Shown: positions 6,362 through 14,796, counted from the first letter of the stretch. The stretch: 24,443 nt of DNA from Anaerolineales bacterium (GCA_028687395.1 JAQUAE010000001.1:1-24443), one strand, 5' to 3'. Numbers and translations are program-made. The notes: generated by a model from the letters alone, not told the origin.

Positions 6362-6846
6362 TTAAGGAAATTTTCCGCTTCGTAACAATTGTCTCAGGAA
6401 AGCAAGTACCTGCCATTTATCAGCATAGGGATGTGCATCAATAAAGGTCTGCCAAGCATTATTATATTCCCATGACCAGACCTGGTGGTATCCTGGAGGC
6501 GTTCCTGCAACCCATCTACCATAATGTAGATCGTTTACATTTAGTCCTCTACCAGGTCCAGCGAACCAGTCTCTGAACTCCCATGGCAGATCGTGATGGG
6601 CTTGGGGATTGGACAATCCCACTGGTGGTTCGTTCATAGCGTCTCTTAAACCAGAAGGATTTGTTGGCCAGAAGGATTTGTTGGTGGGTCAATCGATTGA
6701 ATGCGAGATACCACAAGTCGCCTTATTCCATATCCTCCAGCTCCTGCTATTCCACCACTGACACCACCAACGATTATTGCTTGGAGCAAGTCCTTATTCC
6801 AATTCTGAAGTCCGATTTCGGGGGAAAGAACATTTATTATCTCAGC
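6362..6846 (-). pseudogene. Polymorphic-toxin C-terminal fragment (DUF2380-like putative nuclease), frameshifted and lacking its N-terminus
   Basis: QAHHDLPWEFRDWF...GRWV...HQVWSWEYNNAWQTF motif. Removing the 17-bp duplication at 6651-6684 extends the frame upstream through a Gly-rich hydrophobic segment (AIIVGGVSGGIAGAGGYG) to a stop at 6847-6849. Confidence 0.65.
6651..6684 (+). repeat. Perfect 17-bp tandem duplication (CCAGAAGGATTTGTTGG x2)
   Basis: Read directly: 6651-6667 equals 6668-6684. Confidence 0.95.
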
Positions 6847-7212
6847 TCAATGGAAGAGCGAAACGCCAACGTGCCGACAAGGCGTAGCGCCGCGCAACCC
6901 CGGCGCGCCCGTGGTGTTCCTACCCTAAAGGACTCATATGTGATAGCATATGGGTGAGGCCGCGCCTCTTTCCGGGCTCGCGCTGGGCACAGGCGCAGGC
7001 GCGTGAAGCGGTGCAGCCAGCAGCAGGGACTGGCTCGCTTACCCTAGCACGGCCAAATCTCTCACGCCGCGAGCCATCCATCAGCCTGGCGTCGCGTCCT
7101 GACTGGTAAACCCTTAGCGGTCCCTGAGGAATAGCGATAACCTGTTCGATTGGCTTGCCTCGATAGCTTGGCAGGCATACCACGGCGCACGAAGCCAGGA
7201 GGTCGACCTGGA

Positions 7213-8478
7213 ATGTACCGGGAGTTGAACTTGCCTTACGGAGCCGGGGAAGCGCCGCTTCGGCTGCCGGCGCAGAATCTGGCCGGCGTGTTTGCTCCCC
7301 AAGCCGTGCCCGCCTGCGAAGACCCACGCGTAGAAATTCAGCGCGCTTTATTCAACCCCTTTAACTCGCCGCCATTATCCGAGCTGGTCAAGGCAGGCGA
7401 GCGTGTGGTCATCCTGGTGGACGATCATACCCGCTCCACGCCCGCGGCGCTCATTCTACCCCCCGTTCTGGAGACCCTTACCAGGGGCGGAACGCGGCTG
7501 GAGGACGTGACCATCCTCGTCACTCACGGGACGCATCGCTTGAGCAGCGAAGCGGAAGTGCGCCAAAAAGTGGGCGATTTCGTCTACGACAATTTCCGCG
7601 TCGAGCAACACAACAGCGAAGACGAGGCTAGCCTGGTCTACTTGGGCCTGACCCGCTACGGAACCCCGGTGTGGGTCAATCGCCTGGTGGTCGAAGCGCA
7701 GCGTTGCATCGGCATCGGGCACATCGGGCCGAGCCCCTACGCGGGCTATTCAGGCGGCGCCAAGCTTATAGTGCCCGGCGTGGCGGGACTGGACACGATC
7801 AATATGACCCACGAGCTGGTGCCGTTGGGATTCCGCCAGGCCGGACGGGTGGACGTTCCCTGCCGGCTTTCCCTCGAGGCTGCTGCGGCGCTGGTCAAGC
7901 TGGATTTCCTGATCGACGTGGTGCTCTCACAGGATGAGCGCCTGGCGCGCGCCTTCGCCGGCTCGCCGCAGAGCGTCTTCCAAGCCGGGTTGGCGCTGGC
8001 TCGCCAGGTGTACGAAGTGGCCTGTCCCACAGAGCTGGATGCGGCCATCACCTCGGCTTACCCATACGAAATCGACCTGTACCAGGCATTGCGGGCGATC
8101 GAGTTCGCCGACGCCCACGTACGCCAGGGGGGGAGCATTTTGCTGGTGGCTGCCTGCCCGGAGGGGTGGGGCGACGCCCAATTCCAGGCGCTGATGGCCG
8201 ATCGCGCCAGGAAACCGGAGGATTATTTACGTGACGTCGCCCGCCGCAACGGCAAGGTAACCTTCAGCGTGCTGGGCTACGCTGTAGCCAGGATCAGATC
8301 CGAAAAAAAGCTGTATATCCTCTCCGAAGGCATCCCGCGCGCCGAGCTTAGCGCCGCCGGCTTTCATCCGCTGGATACCTTGCAGCAGGGGGCGGAGTTG
8401 TTGGCTGGGGAGTACGGACCGCAGTACAGGGTGGCGGTCTTCCCCAAAGGCGCTACAACCGTGCCCGTCGCACCCTGA
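7213..8478 (+). CDS. LarA-family nickel-pincer-nucleotide-dependent racemase/epimerase homologue (DUF2088), probably not lactate-specific
   Basis: DDHTRSTP, HGTHR, YAGYSGGAK, TINMTH and DLYQA motifs align with LarA. ATG 7213 follows RBS AGGAGG (7197-7202). Confidence 0.85.
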   Translation: MYRELNLPYGAGEAPLRLPAQNLAGVFAPQAVPACEDPRVEIQRALFNPFNSPPLSELVKAGERVVILVDDHTRSTPAALILPPVLETLTRGGTRLEDVTILVTHGTHRLSSEAEVRQKVGDFVYDNFRVEQHNSEDEASLVYLGLTRYGTPVWVNRLVVEAQRCIGIGHIGPSPYAGYSGGAKLIVPGVAGLDTINMTHELVPLGFRQAGRVDVPCRLSLEAAAALVKLDFLIDVVLSQDERLARAFAGSPQSVFQAGLALARQVYEVACPTELDAAITSAYPYEIDLYQALRAIEFADAHVRQGGSILLVAACPEGWGDAQFQALMADRARKPEDYLRDVARRNGKVTFSVLGYAVARIRSEKKLYILSEGIPRAELSAAGFHPLDTLQQGAELLAGEYGPQYRVAVFPKGATTVPVAP

Positions 8479-8498
8479 TCTCTCTTTTTCTGGAGGGG

Positions 8499-8518
8499 CT
8501 TTGGGAAGGAGGCCTCCC
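8499..8518. repeat. Short hairpin-like intergenic element, inverted partner of 9373-9394
   Basis: CTTTGGGAAGGAGGCCTCCC; its reverse complement GGGAGGCCTCCTTCCCAAAG matches 9373-9394 with two 1-nt insertions. Confidence 0.55.
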
Positions 8519-8568
8519 AATCGTGGTCTTTCACCGAATTTTATTCAAAGCAAAGGAGGACTAGTCCT

Positions 8569-9360
8569 ATGGAACAAAAAGTGCCCGAGAAAGTGCGCCA
8601 TTCCACGAACAGGATTGGAGGCGTATCGATTGCCTGGGTGACGTTGTATGGCGCCCTGTGCGGCGTCACAAGCCTGGTGCCGATCTTTCCATACATCGGG
8701 GGTGGGGGATACGTGCCCCTGACCACCCCGCTCAGTGCGATTGCCCCGCTGCTGCTCGGTCCGGTCGGCGGTGTGGCGGCTGCCCTGGTCGGCGGGGTGA
8801 TCGGTATGTTCATCGCCCCGGCTGCTTACCCATTGCAGGTGGTGGATATCTTCCTGAACGCCGGGCTACCAGCCATCTTCGTTGCTCTGATGCTGAAGAA
8901 CGCTCGTTGGTGGAAAGTCACCGTACCCCTTTTCATCGTTTTGGGGATTTTGGGGTGGCTGGTGCCATTCTACGTTCCTGGCGCCGCGGCCGGCTTTGGC
9001 AAGGTGCCCGAGCCGTTGTACTTCATCATGGCGGCTATCTACTGGCTGCCGTCGACGATCATCGCCGCCACGCCATTAGGGACGCGCCTGATGCCCGAAT
9101 GGGTGGTCAGCAGCAAGCGGGTGCGCCGCTATGGGGGCGTCTTCCTGACCGTACTCGCTGCCCTGTTCGTCTGGTGGTTGCCCTGGACACGCCCCTACTG
9201 GTACCTGTTCAACTTCTCGGCTGAGCTGGGCGTCGCCACGCACCTGGCGTATTCCTGGTGGGTGCCCACGCTATCGGCCATCACTGCGGTCATCACTATC
9301 CCTATCGTCGAGGCCCTGGAAAGAAGCGGCCTGCCGAAGATCGAAGGCGCCATCTGGTAA
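8569..9360 (+). CDS. ECF transporter substrate-binding (S) component, substrate unknown
   Basis: 263 aa, highly hydrophobic multi-TM protein with an LLGPVGGVAAALVG motif. Strong RBS AAGGAGG. It lies directly upstream of the ECF ATPase and T genes. Confidence 0.7.
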   Translation: MEQKVPEKVRHSTNRIGGVSIAWVTLYGALCGVTSLVPIFPYIGGGGYVPLTTPLSAIAPLLLGPVGGVAAALVGGVIGMFIAPAAYPLQVVDIFLNAGLPAIFVALMLKNARWWKVTVPLFIVLGILGWLVPFYVPGAAAGFGKVPEPLYFIMAAIYWLPSTIIAATPLGTRLMPEWVVSSKRVRRYGGVFLTVLAALFVWWLPWTRPYWYLFNFSAELGVATHLAYSWWVPTLSAITAVITIPIVEALERSGLPKIEGAIW

Positions 9361-9372
9361 TCTGGTCTGTCC

Positions 9373-9394
9373 GGGAGTGCCTCCTTCCCCAAAG
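9373..9394. repeat. Inverted copy of the 8499-8518 element
   Basis: GGGAGTGCCTCCTTCCCCAAAG, read directly. Confidence 0.55.
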
Positions 9395-9466
9395 AAACCG
9401 GCAGTCGCGGGGTGCCAGCGCGCTTGAATAGGATGCTTCACAAAAACCAGTCGAGGAATGCTCGCT

Positions 9467-11218
9467 ATGAGCAATGACGTCGCCATTTCGTTGCAGGATG
9501 TGACCTTCACCTACGAGGGGGAGGTGGTGGCGCTGCGCAACCTGAACCTTCAAGCCCATCAGGGGGAATTTGTGGTCGTGCTGGGCGCTAACGGCGCGGG
9601 AAAGTCCACCTTATGTTACCTGATCAGCGGGATCGTGCCCCAGATTTACGGCGGGAGGCGTGGTGGTGTGGTTTCCATCGCCGGCATCGACCCCTGGGAC
9701 GAGCTCCTCTTCGTCACTGCCCAGAAGTGCGGCGTGCTGATGCAGGACCCCGAAGTGCAGCTTTTCATGCCCACTTTGAAGGCCGAGCTTGCTTTCGGGC
9801 CGGCCAACCTGGGTGTTCCATCCGAGGAGATTTTCCAGCGTTCAGAGGCTGCCCTGAGGCTGGTGCGCCTGGACGGGCTCGAGGAGCGCAACCCGCGCGA
9901 CCTCTCCGGAGGGCAGAAGCAGCGCGCCGCCCTGGCCTCTGTGCTGACCATGCAACCTCAGGTGCTCGTCCTGGACGAACCCACCTCGCAGCTCGACCCG
10001 GTCGGCCGTTGGGAGGTGGGCGAGGCCATCGAACAATTGAAGCGCAGGGGCGACCTGACCATCGTGATGACCACCCACGAGACGGAGGAGGTCTTGCACC
10101 TGGCTGACCAGGTGCTCGTGCTGGAGCGCGGCGAGACGGTGCTACAAGGCACCCCACAGGAGGTGTTTTCGCAAGCCGCCCGCCTGGAAGAAGTCGGGGT
10201 GAAGACCCCGGCGTTGGTCAACGCCCAGATGCACTTCTATTCAGCCAAGCCGGGTCAACCTGGAGGGGGAGTAAAAATCGACGCGGGGGCGAGCATCTCA
10301 GAGGTGGCTGCACGCATCCAGAGCTCGATTTTTACGGGGGAGCTGCGCATTGCCTCTCAGGCAACCCCGCCTGAGCCGGCCCCCAAAAACGAGTCCCAAC
10401 CGATTTTGGAAGTGCGCCAGTTGACCGTGGAATATCCTGGCCCGCCCAAGGTGGTGGCTTTACAAGGGATCGACCTGCAGGTCGACCGGGGGGAGTTGGT
10501 AGGGGTCATCGGCCAGAACGGATCGGGCAAGAGCACCCTGGTGAAGTGCATGGTCGGGTTGATTAAACCCCGCGCAGGGCAGGTTCTTTTTCACGGGCAG
10601 GACATCCGCGCTCTCTCCGTGGGAGGCCTGGCGCGGCGCATCGGCCTGGTGCTGCAAAACCCGGACTACCAGCTATTTACCCCCTCATGCCGCGAGGAAG
10701 TGCGTTTTGGGCTGCGCAATGTGGGTATACCCCCGGATGAGATTGAGGCGCTGGTGGATGAAGCCCTGGGCATGGTTGGGTTGGAAGAGGAAGCCGACCT
10801 GTTCCCCTTCCGCCTATCGTTTGGCGACCGGCGCAAGTTAGCCGTTGCGGCAACTATTGCGCTCAAACCTGAAGTGTTGATCATGGACGAGCCGACTACC
10901 GCCCAGGATCACCGCGGGCGATACCAGCTTGCTGAGCTTGCCCGCCGTTTCCACGAGGAGAGAGGTGGGACGGTGGTGATCATTACCCATGACGTCGACC
11001 TGATCGCCCGCTACGCCCAACGCCTGGTAGTGCTGCACGAGGGGCGCATCCTGCTGGATGGGCCGGCGGCGGAAGTCTTCGCTCAAACCGAAGAGTTGAA
11101 GAAGAGCTTCGTGGTGCCCCCGGTGGCCACCCAACTGGCGAGCGAGGTGCTGCCTCCGGAGGCTGCCTCCCAGGTCATGACCCTGGAAGACCTGTTTCGC
11201 TTCATTGTGCCTACCTGA
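9467..11218 (+). CDS. ECF transporter fused double ATPase (EcfA-A')
   Basis: Two ABC domains: GANGAGKST/LSGGQKQR/LDEP and GQNGSGKST/LSFGDRRK/MDEP, with Q-loops QDPEVQLF and QNPDYQLF. ATG 9467 is better spaced from GAGGA than 9458. Confidence 0.92.
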   Translation: MSNDVAISLQDVTFTYEGEVVALRNLNLQAHQGEFVVVLGANGAGKSTLCYLISGIVPQIYGGRRGGVVSIAGIDPWDELLFVTAQKCGVLMQDPEVQLFMPTLKAELAFGPANLGVPSEEIFQRSEAALRLVRLDGLEERNPRDLSGGQKQRAALASVLTMQPQVLVLDEPTSQLDPVGRWEVGEAIEQLKRRGDLTIVMTTHETEEVLHLADQVLVLERGETVLQGTPQEVFSQAARLEEVGVKTPALVNAQMHFYSAKPGQPGGGVKIDAGASISEVAARIQSSIFTGELRIASQATPPEPAPKNESQPILEVRQLTVEYPGPPKVVALQGIDLQVDRGELVGVIGQNGSGKSTLVKCMVGLIKPRAGQVLFHGQDIRALSVGGLARRIGLVLQNPDYQLFTPSCREEVRFGLRNVGIPPDEIEALVDEALGMVGLEEEADLFPFRLSFGDRRKLAVAATIALKPEVLIMDEPTTAQDHRGRYQLAELARRFHEERGGTVVIITHDVDLIARYAQRLVVLHEGRILLDGPAAEVFAQTEELKKSFVVPPVATQLASEVLPPEAASQVMTLEDLFRFIVPT

Positions 11219-11238
11219 GTGGCGGGAGAGCAGAGACC

Positions 11239-12045
11239 ATGCAACCCGTTTTTCGTTACACCAAACTGGACACGCCGATTCACCGCCTGCACCCGCTGGT
11301 CAAGCTGGCTTACGTCCTGCTCACCCTGGTGCTGGTGATGTACCCGATTCGCCCAACCGATATGCCTGTCCTGCTGGTCTGGCTGGGATTATCTGCACTG
11401 CTCTGGGCGGTGGCGCGCATCGAGCTGCGCCGGTTCGGGACGCTGATGAAAATCCTGGTCGGGACGTTCATCTTCCTGATCCTCATTCAGGGCTTCACCT
11501 ATCGCTTCGGCAAGACGCCGCTCATCACTCTAGGGCACCTGCGGCTGTGGGAAGCCGACCTGGGAGTGATCACCCGCGAGGGCGTGTGGTTTGGGGTGGT
11601 GCTCAGCGTGCGCGTCCTGGCCGCCACGTCCTCCTTGCCCCTCTTCGTCATGACCACCTCCTCTTCGGAGATCATGACGGCGTTGGCGAAATTGCGCGTC
11701 CCGCGCACCGCCACCTTCATGATCGTCAGCGCCCTCTCCTTTACAACCCTGATCTTCGAGATGTGGTCTTCGATCTTGGAGGCGCAAAAGCTGCGTGCCT
11801 TCGACATCGAGCGGATGAACGTGTTCAAACGCGCCCTGAAAGCGTACGTGCCCATCATCACTCCGCTCATCCTGCTGCTCTTCCGTAAAGCGAACGATTT
11901 CCAGATTGCCATGGAGACGAAGGGCTTCGGCGCGCCGGTAGAGCCCACCGAGATCGAGACGCTCACCTCCCGCCCGGCGGATTTCTTATGGCTGGGGTTG
12001 GTGGTGGCTGTCTTCGTGGGGTGCACCGTGTTGAAATTCGCCTGA
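11239..12045 (+). CDS. ecfT: ECF transporter transmembrane coupling component T (CbiQ/EcfT family)
   Basis: DTPIHRLHPLVKL N-terminus, with EAQKLRA and AMETKGF coupling-helix motifs. Confidence 0.9.
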   Translation: MQPVFRYTKLDTPIHRLHPLVKLAYVLLTLVLVMYPIRPTDMPVLLVWLGLSALLWAVARIELRRFGTLMKILVGTFIFLILIQGFTYRFGKTPLITLGHLRLWEADLGVITREGVWFGVVLSVRVLAATSSLPLFVMTTSSSEIMTALAKLRVPRTATFMIVSALSFTTLIFEMWSSILEAQKLRAFDIERMNVFKRALKAYVPIITPLILLLFRKANDFQIAMETKGFGAPVEPTEIETLTSRPADFLWLGLVVAVFVGCTVLKFA

Positions 12046-12127
12046 CCAGCGGCGGGGTAGGGGGGAAAGCGCGCCAGTGGCGCGAATTGGTTTTTGCTGG
12101 CGCGTCCAACCACGTTCTAAGATAGTA

Positions 12128-12133
12128 TATAAT
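12128..12133 (+). promoter_or_regulatory. Candidate sigma70 -10 box (TATAAT) for the sensor kinase gene
   Basis: Perfect TATAAT in an AT-rich patch ~30 nt before the start. No good -35 is seen. Confidence 0.45.
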
Positions 12134-12164
12134 TCCGTGTGGATTAGTCCGGATAAACCCGCGA

Positions 12165-14171
12165 GTGGTGAATACGGTGAGCAGATTCTTCTCCTTGCAG
12201 AGCGTACAAGGCCGCCTGGGCTTGCTCTTCCTGACCTTCTTCCTGTTGCTGTCCGTCTCGGTGGGGGCGACCTTTTTCGGCATCGATTCCCAGAAGCGCG
12301 ATGGTCTGGTGATCAACCTGGCGGGGCGGCAGCGCATGCTGGTGCAGTGGATGGCGCGCCTGGCGTTGGAAATTGGCAATGGCGGGGGACAGGAACAGGC
12401 AGATGACCTGCGGGCGGCCATGCGTACCTTCGAGGGGACGTTGACTGCGCTGCAGCATGGCGGTAACGCCCCCTATTCCGAGGAGAGCAGTGTGGAGGTC
12501 CCCGCGGCGCGCTCAGCGGAGATCCAGGCGCAACTGCACCTGGCGCAGGAGGCCTGGGAGGCGCTGCGAGATCCCCTGGAGAAGGTGGCCGCAGGGCAAA
12601 TCTCCGGCGCGGAGCTGGCGGAGGCCGTCACCGAAACGCAAAGGCTTTCCCAGGCGGTAGTCGCCCGCGCCGACGAAGCCGTACGGCTCTACGAGCAAGA
12701 ATCCGCCGAGGACATGGAGCAACTGCGCCTGATTCAGGCGGCCTTCTTTGCCAGCGCCTTGTTGCTGCTCGCCGCCGGCGCCTGGCTCACGCGCCAATCG
12801 GTGCTTGCCCCGCTCAAGGCGATCCAGGCTGGTGCCCAGCGGGTGGGCGCCGGCGACCTGGAGACGCCCCTGCAGGTGCGCAGCCCTGCCGAGTTCGCCG
12901 CCCTGGCGGCCACCTTCAACAGCATGCAGGCCCAGTTACATGCCTCCCGGGAAGCGATGACCTCCTGGGCGGAGGAGCTCGAAGGGCGCGTCGCCCAACG
13001 CACGCGCGAGTTGGAAGCCTTGTACGAGGTCAGCCGGGATATCTCCTCCCGCCTGGACGTACGCCACGTGTTGAACTCGGTGACCGAGAAGGCGCGCGAG
13101 CTGCTGCAGGCGGAGGTGGCTTCGCTGTGCCTGCTGGAGGATTCTACCGAAGTGCTGACCATCAGCTCCCACAGCGGGCCGCCGGACGCCGTGATGGGCA
13201 ACAGTTCGCTCGTGGAGGGTGGCATTGCCGGGCCGGTGCTATCCAGCACGGAGGCGGTGGCGTGTGGTGAGTACCAGTGCTCCGCGGCGTGTAGCATTCT
13301 CTCGTCACAATACCGGGCCAGCCACCTGGTGGCACCGCTCAGGGTGGGGTCGCGGGTGATCGGCGCCTTGTGCGTCGGCAGCCGCCAACCGGGGGCCTTT
13401 TCGGAAAAAGCCTGCCCATTGCTGGGGAAACTGGCCAACTCGGCAGCGATTGCCCTGGAGAACGCCCGCCTGTATGCCCAGGCCGAGCGCGTCGCTACCC
13501 TGGAGGAGCGCCAGCGCATCGCCGCCGATATGCACGATAGCCTGGGCCAAACCCTGAGCTACCTCAGCCTGAGCATGGACCAGGTGAGCGAATACCTCCG
13601 AGCGGGGGATGGGGCGCGTGCCCAGGAAAACCTGGAAGCCTCCCGCCAGGCGCTCAACCAGGCCAACCTCGAGGTGCGCCGCGCCATCTCTAGCCTGATG
13701 GAAGACCCACCCCTGCGCCGCAGCTTGCAGGAACAGCTCGCTGCCCTGGTAGACGAATGCACTGCCATGGAGGGACCCCAGGTTGCCTGGCGGGACGCGT
13801 TGGGCAAGGCGCTGCACCTGCCTCAGGACAAGGCGGAACAGGTGCTGCGCGTGGCGCGCGAAGCGGTGATCAACGCCCAGCGCCACGCCGGAGCGCAGCG
13901 GGTGCAGGTGGTCTTTCAGGAAAATGGCGGTGAATACCAGTTGAGCGTGCAGGACGATGGCTGCGGTTTCGATACAGCCATCTTGAAGAATAGACAGGGC
14001 AATCACTTTGGCCTGCGTATCATGCAAGCCCGAGCAGGTCTGCTCGGAGGCAATTGCAGCGTAGAGTCGGCGCCCGGCGAAGGGACGCGGGTGATGTTGC
14101 GCTGGCCCAAGCATAGGCAGCGCCCCGAAGCTGAAAGGCAGCATGAAACTTATGCGCATATTATTGGCTGA
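12165..14171 (+). CDS. narX: NarX/NarQ-like nitrate/nitrite sensor histidine kinase (PilJ/NarX sensor, HAMP, GAF, HisKA_3, HATPase)
   Basis: P-box-like INLAGRQRML between two TM helices, HAMP, GAF, H-box ERQRIAADMHDSLGQ, then NAQRHA, DDGCGF, HFGLRIM and GEGTRV. The GTG start could be 12165 or 12177. Confidence 0.85.
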   Translation: MVNTVSRFFSLQSVQGRLGLLFLTFFLLLSVSVGATFFGIDSQKRDGLVINLAGRQRMLVQWMARLALEIGNGGGQEQADDLRAAMRTFEGTLTALQHGGNAPYSEESSVEVPAARSAEIQAQLHLAQEAWEALRDPLEKVAAGQISGAELAEAVTETQRLSQAVVARADEAVRLYEQESAEDMEQLRLIQAAFFASALLLLAAGAWLTRQSVLAPLKAIQAGAQRVGAGDLETPLQVRSPAEFAALAATFNSMQAQLHASREAMTSWAEELEGRVAQRTRELEALYEVSRDISSRLDVRHVLNSVTEKARELLQAEVASLCLLEDSTEVLTISSHSGPPDAVMGNSSLVEGGIAGPVLSSTEAVACGEYQCSAACSILSSQYRASHLVAPLRVGSRVIGALCVGSRQPGAFSEKACPLLGKLANSAAIALENARLYAQAERVATLEERQRIAADMHDSLGQTLSYLSLSMDQVSEYLRAGDGARAQENLEASRQALNQANLEVRRAISSLMEDPPLRRSLQEQLAALVDECTAMEGPQVAWRDALGKALHLPQDKAEQVLRVAREAVINAQRHAGAQRVQVVFQENGGEYQLSVQDDGCGFDTAILKNRQGNHFGLRIMQARAGLLGGNCSVESAPGEGTRVMLRWPKHRQRPEAERQHETYAHIIG

Positions 14172-14796
14172 CGACCATGCCCTCTTCCGGGAAGGCCTGG
14201 CCGGCATCCTTGCCGCCCAGCCCGACATCGAAGTGGTTGGCGAAGCCAGCGACGGGCTGGAAGCGGTGGTGAAAGCCCTCGAGCTGAAACCCGACCTGGT
14301 CTTGATGGACATCCAGATGCCCGGCATCGACGGGATCGAAGCCACTCGCCAGATCAAGAAGGACCTCCCCCAGACGACGATCGTGATGTTGACCGTGCGC
14401 GATGACGAGCAGAAGCTCTTCGAAGCGATCAAGTGCGGTGCGCAGGGCTATTTATTGAAAAACATCCGCTCACGAGAGATGCTGGAGATGGTGCGCAGCG
14501 CGGCGCGCGGCGAGGCCGCCCTCTCGCCCGCCCTGGCCAGCCACGTCCTGGAGGAATTCCGCCGCCTCAGCCAGCAACTGCCTCCCGATGGCTTGGGAGA
14601 AGCCGACGCCCTCACCCAGCGCGAGCAGGAGGTGCTCGGCCACGTCGCCATGGGGGCGAGCGATAAAGAAATCGCCGCGGCGATGAGCCTGAGCCTGCAC
14701 ACCGTGAAGAGCCACATGCGCAACATCCTCTCCAAGCTGCAGGTGAACAACCGCCGTGCGGCCGCTCGCCTGGCCAAGCACAAGGGCCTGATCTAA
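14143..14796 (+). CDS. narL: NarL/LuxR-family response regulator
   Basis: ILLADDH, DLVLMDI (phospho-Asp), GYLLK and an LTQREQEVL...TVKSHMRNILSKL HTH. Overlaps the end of the kinase gene. Confidence 0.9.
   Translation: MKLMRILLADDHALFREGLAGILAAQPDIEVVGEASDGLEAVVKALELKPDLVLMDIQMPGIDGIEATRQIKKDLPQTTIVMLTVRDDEQKLFEAIKCGAQGYLLKNIRSREMLEMVRSAARGEAALSPALASHVLEEFRRLSQQLPPDGLGEADALTQREQEVLGHVAMGASDKEIAAAMSLSLHTVKSHMRNILSKLQVNNRRAAARLAKHKGLI

Follow-up and report, generated by a model that had tools for sequence, protein, structure and literature searches.

The DNA analyzed here (the window) is a whole contig of 24,443 nucleotides (nt), or 24.4 kb, from an Anaerolineae metagenome-assembled genome (MAG) that is 86% complete (Anaerolineales bacterium, JAQUAE010000001.1), and the system in question is a four-gene unit on its plus strand in which a LarA-family gene stands directly ahead of an importer of the energy-coupling factor (ECF) type. 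Separated by short gaps, the genes encode a LarA homologue of 421 amino acids (aa) (7213-8478), a hydrophobic membrane protein of 263 aa that is predicted to be an ECF S component (8569-9360), a fused EcfA-EcfA' ATPase (AA') of 586 aa (9458-11218) and an EcfT protein (T) of the CbiQ family, the transmembrane coupling component, of 268 aa (11239-12045). The initial annotation had described an enzyme-S-AA'-T unit at this place, and all four genes were found where it had put them, all on the plus strand. Taken singly, the parts, a LarA homologue and a group I ECF importer, belong to known types. An AGGAGG sequence lies 9 nt before the LarA ATG at 7213, both LarA and S are preceded by good Shine-Dalgarno sequences, and the ATPase has an alternative start at a second ATG (9467) with a better-spaced Shine-Dalgarno sequence. 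A terminator-like GC hairpin with a T-rich tail on the same strand (12070-12084) probably marks the end of the operon. A promoter scan gave nothing above shuffle expectation, and a search of 6600-12400 against Rfam (E <= 1) found no riboswitch, the one match, inside the S open reading frame (ORF), being at chance level.

Metagenome contigs from landfill and soil, taken from two separate studies (X2 and X3), are colinear with positions 6839-14500 and 7272-14500 at ~98-99% identity and run through LarA-S-AA'-T into the downstream sensor kinase gene (NarX). Because independent contigs from two studies cover it, this gene order is not an assembly artifact. The DNA to the left of the unit is mobile (IS21, low-GC cassettes and an Rhs/SUKH remnant), and to its right come a NarX/NarL-type pair and a nitrate respiration operon; neither flank is related to the LarA-S-AA'-T unit. 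Left of ~6839, the contig of the soil strain (X2) departs from the window, so that the mobile or cassette DNA adjoining larA differs from strain to strain. It is at this variable position that relatives carry a regulator gene of the GntR/FCD type.

The initial annotation had inferred that the 263-aa protein is an ECF S component, and this is supported by its predicted fold, by transitive sequence similarity and by an invariable linkage to AA' and T. The protein matched nothing in Pfam or NCBIfam, even at E = 10, and lies outside the characterized S families, as that annotation had supposed. We built an AlphaFold (AF2) model from 24 family members (predicted local distance difference test score, 90; predicted template modeling score, 0.88) and compared it exhaustively with 48,161 representative PDB chains by VIA-align. 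The best 15 matches were all ECF S components (Z 7.5-11.0; root mean square deviation, 3.1-4.4 Å); the top matches comprised BioY (Z 11.0, 178 of 189 residues aligned), FolT (Z 10.8), HmpT/PdxU2, RibU, YkoE, NikM, ThiT, PanT, CbiM and BtuM. These alignments span nearly the whole of the solved chains; the first unrelated helical proteins appear at Z 7.3, with only half of the model covered. Foldseek found no match in PDB at E <= 0.001 and, taken alone, returned E values of at least 0.077, yet with a probability of 0.8-0.95 for S components. As modeled, the window protein has the compact six-helix fold that defines S components. It is ~75 residues longer than BioY or FolT, and we infer from the range of the alignment (9-263) that the extra length is spread along the chain, with no separate domain.

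Searched against 1.84 billion representative sequences (E <= 1e-3), a profile of the S family retrieved 92 proteins, showing that the family is rare. Its remotest members reach PF07155 (30-31 bits; cutoff, 26.7) and PF12822, at or above the gathering score, and because only these remote members do so, the link of the window protein to curated Pfam models is a transitive one. The family is rich in Trp and Tyr and has three invariant motifs: a glycine-rich hairpin in loop 1 (PxFPYxGGGGYxPL), GMFxAPAxxP, and a C-terminal EALxRSGLP...W. The window protein is the founding member of an unnamed and uncharacterized family of ECF S components, with a predicted role in substrate capture.

The fused ATPase scores above the cutoffs of both TIGR04520 (453 bits) and TIGR04521 (442 bits), and EcfT matches PF02361 (89.5 bits), with TIGR02454 at 77 bits, below its cutoff. 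The N-terminal half of the ATPase carries the signature LSGGQ and the C-terminal half a degenerate version, LSFGD (residues ~452-456), and the energizer is therefore built asymmetrically. A degenerate second signature, (L/M)SFGD, was present in 60 of 60 orthologues linked to the S family (MSFGD in 6 of them), which suggests that the fused protein has one consensus and one degenerate ATP site. In EcfT, a simple pattern search for the Ala-Arg-Gly of the coupling helix matched nothing, only KLRVP and KLRAF being seen. We assembled the genomic contexts of the S family from 78 species-representative genomes or loci. S is followed by a fused AA' and a T gene in every one of the 63 loci that extend 3.5 kb or more downstream, and neither in the window nor in the 78 loci was an extra small membrane gene found between or beside S, AA' and T. 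Thus, the S family comes with its own energizing module throughout.

In a tree of S proteins, the window belongs to a clade with strong support that comprises 37 Anaerolineae/Thermoflexales loci. In 34 of these, LarA is immediately upstream of S, and the other 3 begin less than 250 nt before S and thus have no upstream flank. The full form of the unit in this clade is a GntR/FCD regulator, LarA, S, AA', T and a class III aminotransferase, the first and last of which are absent from the window unit. A search of the window's genome for the clade's regulator and aminotransferase yielded only paralogues (25-29% and 55% identity, respectively), and the independent metagenome contigs confirm that the window operon has no aminotransferase gene. 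We also ran the test in reverse, searching the window LarA against 300 genomes of its class. This gave 8 orthologues (58-67% identical), all with a GHIGPS motif, and paralogues of no more than 37% identity. S was directly downstream of 7 of the 8 orthologues, the eighth ending at a contig edge, and was within 1.5 kb of none of the 21 paralogues. The linkage of LarA to S is thus conserved in both directions (34 of the 34 flanked loci of the clade; 7 of 8 orthologues against 0 of 21 paralogues), and neither of the findings that the initial annotation had named as refuting (an S component of a characterized family, or a link to LarA not kept across genomes) was made. These relatives are all MAGs, and genomes that are related do not count as independent samples. 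One locus on a contig binned as Gemmatimonadota (L017; LarA-S-AA'-T-aminotransferase) nests in the Anaerolineae clade with an S 81% identical to that of the window, a placement that is probably due to a binning error rather than to gene transfer.

The LarA homologue matches Lar_N (2e-59, 200.5 bits) and LarA_C (37.3 bits) in Pfam but falls below every NCBIfam cutoff for a LarAH equivalog, the best being the malate racemase LarAH6 (334.8 bits; cutoff, 500) and a second malate racemase equivalog, LarAH5, scoring 276 bits (cutoff, 462). In the numbering of Lactiplantibacillus plantarum LarA, it retains the cofactor-binding residues Arg75, Lys184 (the anchor of the nickel-pincer cofactor) and His200 as well as the catalytic His108 (within THGTHR), and the DDHTR, GG.K and N/T-H motifs are conserved. 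The position of the second catalytic histidine, His174, is occupied by Ser in the window and in all orthologues of its clade (clade A), within the invariant motif GHIGPSPYAGYSGG.K, and the alignment is ungapped from this Ser to the AGYSGG.K anchor. Two additional conserved histidines lie 3 residues before His108 and 4 residues before Ser174. At the specificity positions defined in PMC11770544, the window enzyme has Pro-Tyr after Ser174 and Leu-Gly at the positions of W358 and T359, a combination that matches no described class. The Ser174 lineage is a distinct orthogroup that appears to be undescribed in the literature we searched.

As for LarA's cofactor, nickel-pincer nucleotide (NPN), the window's own MAG (86% complete) has fragments of larE and of larC at the edge of a contig, and larB was not found there. 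The fragments (G000:C149:2-643, minus strand) lie in one open frame that joins the N-terminal part of a LarE-like protein (profile positions 2-123) to the N terminus of LarC (4-98), representing either a LarE-LarC fusion, a truncation or an assembly artifact. LarC was found in four of the five near-complete relatives that carry the unit, which suggests that the cofactor is made in the cell. The fifth, G015, is a complete (100%) genome of the same class that has the Ser174 LarA-S unit and in which LarC (PF01969) was not found, which is odd if this LarA needs the nickel-pincer cofactor.

A 14-nt inverted repeat brackets the S ORF, with cores at 8500-8513 (56 nt before the start codon) and 9379-9392 (19 nt after the stop codon). 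The 5' arm (8490-8518, plus strand) is purine rich and resembles a Shine-Dalgarno sequence, and the 3' arm (9370-9404, plus strand) resembles an anti-Shine-Dalgarno sequence. When the 921 nt from 8485 to 9405 were folded as RNA, the repeat helix closed the whole S cistron in both the minimum free energy and the centroid structures. Of the 36 loci of the window clade, 29 reached a repeat score of at least 10, as did 5 of the 6 in a second Chloroflexota clade but 0 of 35 other loci (Bacillota and archaea included), whose scores equaled those of shuffled controls (mean, 6.7). The arms vary between species while keeping their complementarity (score, 11.0 for arms of the same locus versus 8.2 across loci), and none of 2,000 permuted arm pairings reached the observed value, although relatedness inflates tests of this kind. 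We read the repeat as a putative RNA element through which the S cistron would be stabilized or translated differently from the other genes of the operon, in which case it would offer an example of cistron-specific control, by a covarying helix, in a phylum whose RNA regulation has been little studied. A possible upstream ORF of 13 codons (GTG...TAG, 8523-8564) starts 12 nt after the GGAGG of the 5' arm and ends 4 nt short of the S start codon, and may be a chance occurrence.

Beyond the window clade, S-AA'-T units (S proteins 45-58% identical) have other neighbors. In Thorarchaeota, a divergently transcribed LarA gene and an EamA transporter gene lie upstream of the unit, which is followed downstream by genes for a GlcD-like flavoenzyme, for iron-sulfur (FeS) and CCG subunits and for a class I/II aminotransferase. 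Units in Bathyarchaeia are accompanied by a class III aminotransferase and an NAD-dependent D-2-hydroxyacid dehydrogenase; those in Chloroflexia and Anaerolineaceae by a GlcD-like gene, an ornithine cyclodeaminase/mu-crystallin gene and a class I/II aminotransferase; and those in Bacillota by a GlcD-like gene, a class III aminotransferase, an IclR regulator or another LarA. We counted genes within 8 kb of S in 47 species-level loci with at least 2.5 kb of upstream and 5 kb of downstream sequence, calling them with our own ORF calling and tblastn and verifying representatives with Pfam and NCBIfam. LarA was present in 24 of the 47 loci, GlcD in 12 and an NAD-dependent 2-hydroxyacid dehydrogenase (2-Hacid_dh) in 7. 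Any one of these hydroxy acid enzymes was present in 39, any aminotransferase in 37 and any member of either group in 44. By a rough estimate that assumes a few copies per family in a genome of ~4 Mb, chance would put such neighbors beside S in a few percent of loci.

Among solved structures, the GlcD-like partner comes closest to D-lactate, D-2-hydroxyglutarate and glycolate dehydrogenases, and the class III enzyme to gamma-aminobutyric acid (GABA) transaminases and amino acid racemases or epimerases. Adjoining the unit are regulators of the GntR/FCD, IclR and AsnC types, types that respond to organic or amino acids. The neighbors use four different cofactors (NPN, flavin adenine dinucleotide [FAD]/FeS, NAD and pyridoxal phosphate [PLP]), and what they have in common is that their chemistry takes place at the C2 position of a carboxylic acid bearing a hydroxy, oxo or amino group. 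LarA stands beside S in four arrangements (Anaerolineae, Thorarchaeota, Bacillota and locus L054), and the LarA subfamilies concerned are mutually only 26-35% identical (the S proteins, 45-58%) and were therefore recruited to S independently.

Other genes recur around the archaeal units. In five Thorarchaeota loci (L060, L061, L065, L067 and L068), genes for methyltransferases of the uroporphyrinogen decarboxylase (URO-D) family and for a B12-binding corrinoid protein are found ~7-10 kb downstream of S, and an aldehyde:ferredoxin oxidoreductase gene is found upstream of the S-AA'-T-GlcD-aminotransferase block. In L056, L064, L067 and L081, also archaeal, the ECF unit is flanked by genes for ornithine transcarbamylase (OTCase) and an amidinotransferase-fold protein resembling arginine deiminase or dimethylarginine dimethylaminohydrolase (ADI/DDAH), to which L056 adds an amino acid (carbamate) kinase gene. 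These flanks hint at arginine, citrulline or ornithine metabolism.

Since the S family, across bacteria and archaea, adjoins enzymes that interconvert 2-hydroxy, 2-oxo and amino acids, it probably imports an acid of this kind, not a vitamin or nickel. We therefore favor, with somewhat better than even confidence, a transporter that brings in a 2-hydroxy, 2-oxo or amino acid to feed a module for C2 inversion, oxidation and transamination. Within this class, a 2-hydroxy acid is the most likely substrate and the matching 2-oxo or amino acid a less likely one. In the mechanism that we propose, the S component of a dedicated group I ECF-type ATP-binding cassette importer would capture a small alpha-functionalized carboxylic acid at the outer face, and EcfT and the asymmetric fused EcfAA' would drive its translocation through the usual cycle of S-component toppling. 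Inside the cell, the LarA homologue, presumed to depend on the nickel-pincer cofactor, would invert or otherwise process C2 of the acid, and in relatives a D-specific 2-hydroxyacid dehydrogenase (of the GlcD/FeS-CCG or the NAD type) and an aminotransferase would link it to the pool of 2-oxo and amino acids. The window genome would then have retained only the LarA-S-AA'-T core. Among its speculative options, the initial annotation had named uptake and stereo-correction of a vitamin-related 2-hydroxy acid such as pantoate. The general idea fits the conserved neighbors, which point to bulk-type acids and amino acid metabolism and not to a vitamin; pantoate as the substrate is not supported, as PanC (PF02569) was found neither in any of five unit-carrying genomes (at least 92% complete) nor in the window's own genome and no pan gene recurs beside the unit.

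Several observations weigh against import of such an acid. Three fully flanked loci have none of the partner enzymes, and the genomes counted, being related, are not independent of one another. The linked LarA subfamilies differ in their predicted specificity residues: the Thorarchaeota partner is a canonical LarA (IEPHYF) with the His-Lys pair typical of malate racemases, whereas the window clade has Leu-Gly. The substrate may therefore differ between clades, and an attempt to narrow it down from LarA specificity residues together with the aminotransferase subfamily did not converge, the Thorarchaeota enzyme being malate racemase-like and that of the window clade unlike any described pattern. 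With its second catalytic histidine missing, the window LarA may not be a racemase at all. The only invariant basic residue in the S family is R252, near the C terminus, and binding of a carboxylate might call for such residues, so that their scarcity counts against an acid substrate. The ECF importers characterized so far are known to take up vitamins, cofactor precursors, metals, queuosine precursors and a few amino acid-related compounds, and a hydroxy acid would, as far as we are aware, be an unprecedented ECF substrate.

The best-surviving alternative, which we nevertheless consider unlikely, is that the substrate bears an amine (an omega-amino acid, a compound of the ornithine/arginine type or a D-amino acid), on which the class III aminotransferase or racemase would act first, LarA handling a later 2-hydroxy intermediate. 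The class III gene directly follows EcfT in most loci of clade A and of Bathyarchaeia, its product has the GABA transaminase and racemase/epimerase affinities noted above, and in some clades genes of the ornithine cyclodeaminase family and for OTCase, ADI/DDAH-like, carbamate kinase-like and CN-hydrolase proteins recur near the unit. However, the window operon lacks the aminotransferase on which this order of events would turn, and LarA and D-2-hydroxyacid dehydrogenase neighbors are at least as frequent as aminotransferases (39 versus 37 of the 47 loci).

Less probable again is import of a vitamin or cofactor precursor for the neighboring enzymes: LarA might receive a pyridine or NPN precursor and the aminotransferases a B6 vitamer, and pantoate would be a further candidate. 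Such uptake is the known role of ECF transporters, the sequence families nearest to S are vitamin S components, and the same counts that put LarA near S in 24 of 47 loci put a PLP enzyme there in 37. Against this, the diversity of cofactors among the neighbors leaves acid C2 chemistry as their common point; the presence of LarC in four of five relatives and of larC and larE fragments in the window MAG speaks against an imported NPN precursor, as does the occurrence of S without LarA; and riboswitches, the typical control of vitamin uptake, were not found at the unit, the regulators being of the acid-sensing GntR and IclR types.

It is very improbable that LarA and the ECF genes are neighbors through inherited synteny alone, devoid of functional meaning. 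Most of the LarA-linked loci do come from related MAGs of one Chloroflexota clade, but the linkage recurs, across two domains of life, in the four arrangements with divergent LarA subfamilies; it also works in both directions, is specific to one LarA orthogroup and involves closely spaced genes on one strand. Least credible of all is an importer of nickel or cobalt that would supply the nickel-pincer cofactor of the adjacent LarA, as Lar(MN)QO does in L. plantarum: LarA needs nickel, some known LarA loci do include an ECF nickel importer (PMC7583248 Table S1) and the S model aligns with NikM/CbiM structures (4m5c, Z 9.5; 5x3x, Z 7.9), but S does not match PF01891 even at E = 10 and has no CbiM/NikM signature, its N terminus (alignment columns 1-17) is variable and has no conserved Met-His, the family has no invariant His, Cys or Met, no CbiN/NikN-like gene adjoins the unit, a canonical CbiM is encoded elsewhere in four of the five near-complete genomes that carry it, and in several clades the S family stands without LarA beside flavin, NAD and PLP enzymes. 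The initial annotation's suggestion of a nickel-pincer precursor as the cargo is likewise not supported.

An acid-importing system of this kind would matter in several ways. ECF transporters are seen as vitamin and trace-metal scavengers, and if the proposed substrate class is right, their range would widen to ordinary organic acids and acids derived from amino acids; it would also provide a handle on the natural substrate of a LarA lineage that lacks one catalytic histidine. The S family is small, highly conserved and always found with its own energizing module, which makes it a clean target for ligand fishing. In the literature we searched, ECF S components were joined with lactate racemase nowhere beyond the nickel importer, and the S family and its cross-domain association with hydroxy acid and aminotransferase genes appear to be undescribed there. 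The whole combination, namely, a first ECF family for 2-hydroxy or 2-oxo acids, spread over Chloroflexota, Bacillota, Asgard archaea and Bathyarchaeia, joined in Anaerolineae to a one-histidine Ser174 LarA and to an RNA helix that sets S expression apart, is one that we put forward only tentatively.

The initial annotation had taken acid permeases, and not ECF systems, to be the usual partners of LarA homologues. This was incomplete, as the classical lar locus includes the nickel ECF importer Lar(MN)QO, and COG0310 and COG0619 occur in 18% of the contexts of group 1 LarA (PMC7583248 Table S1). Lar(MN)QO of L. plantarum is likewise an ECF-type importer, with S, T and ATPase components, whose genes adjoin that of a LarA-family enzyme. 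As its S unit, however, it has a NikM-NikN fusion of the CbiM family, which binds nickel through its amino terminus, whereas the window S has no CbiM signature, its ATPase is a fused AA' and its family elsewhere pairs with enzymes that do not use nickel.

In architecture, the window unit resembles YkoEDC, a group I importer of thiamine precursors, in having a dedicated S component, a fused double ATPase and a T component in one operon, and the S model aligns with YkoE (5EDL) at Z 9.8. The window S nevertheless has no detectable sequence similarity to YkoE, and the unit differs in having neither a thiamine pyrophosphate (TPP) riboswitch nor any other, in its hydroxy acid and amino acid enzyme neighbors and in the degenerate LSFGD signature of its ATPase, found in all 60 orthologues. 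RibU, BioY and FolT (PF07155, ECF-ribofla_trS; PF12822, ECF_trnsprt) share the fold of the modeled window S (Z 10-11), which differs from them in its length (263 aa against ~160-190), in having invariant motifs of its own and in matching no Pfam family itself.

For the enzyme, the nearest characterized homologues are the malate racemase Mar2 (LarAH6; 6D6Z) and the broad-spectrum LarA of Isosphaera pallida (9EID), at 199-209 bits; the window protein departs from them in having Ser in place of His174, followed by Pro-Tyr, and Leu-Gly where malate racemases have His/Gln-Lys. LarA-Bw and LarA-Sp (PMC12611868), in which His174 is replaced by Asn, and LarAH groups 14 and 15 are also without the second catalytic histidine. 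These proteins are ~500 aa long, are octameric, have Asn at this position and are linked to carbohydrate genes, whereas the window LarA, at 421 aa and with Ser, scores only 75-81 bits against them.

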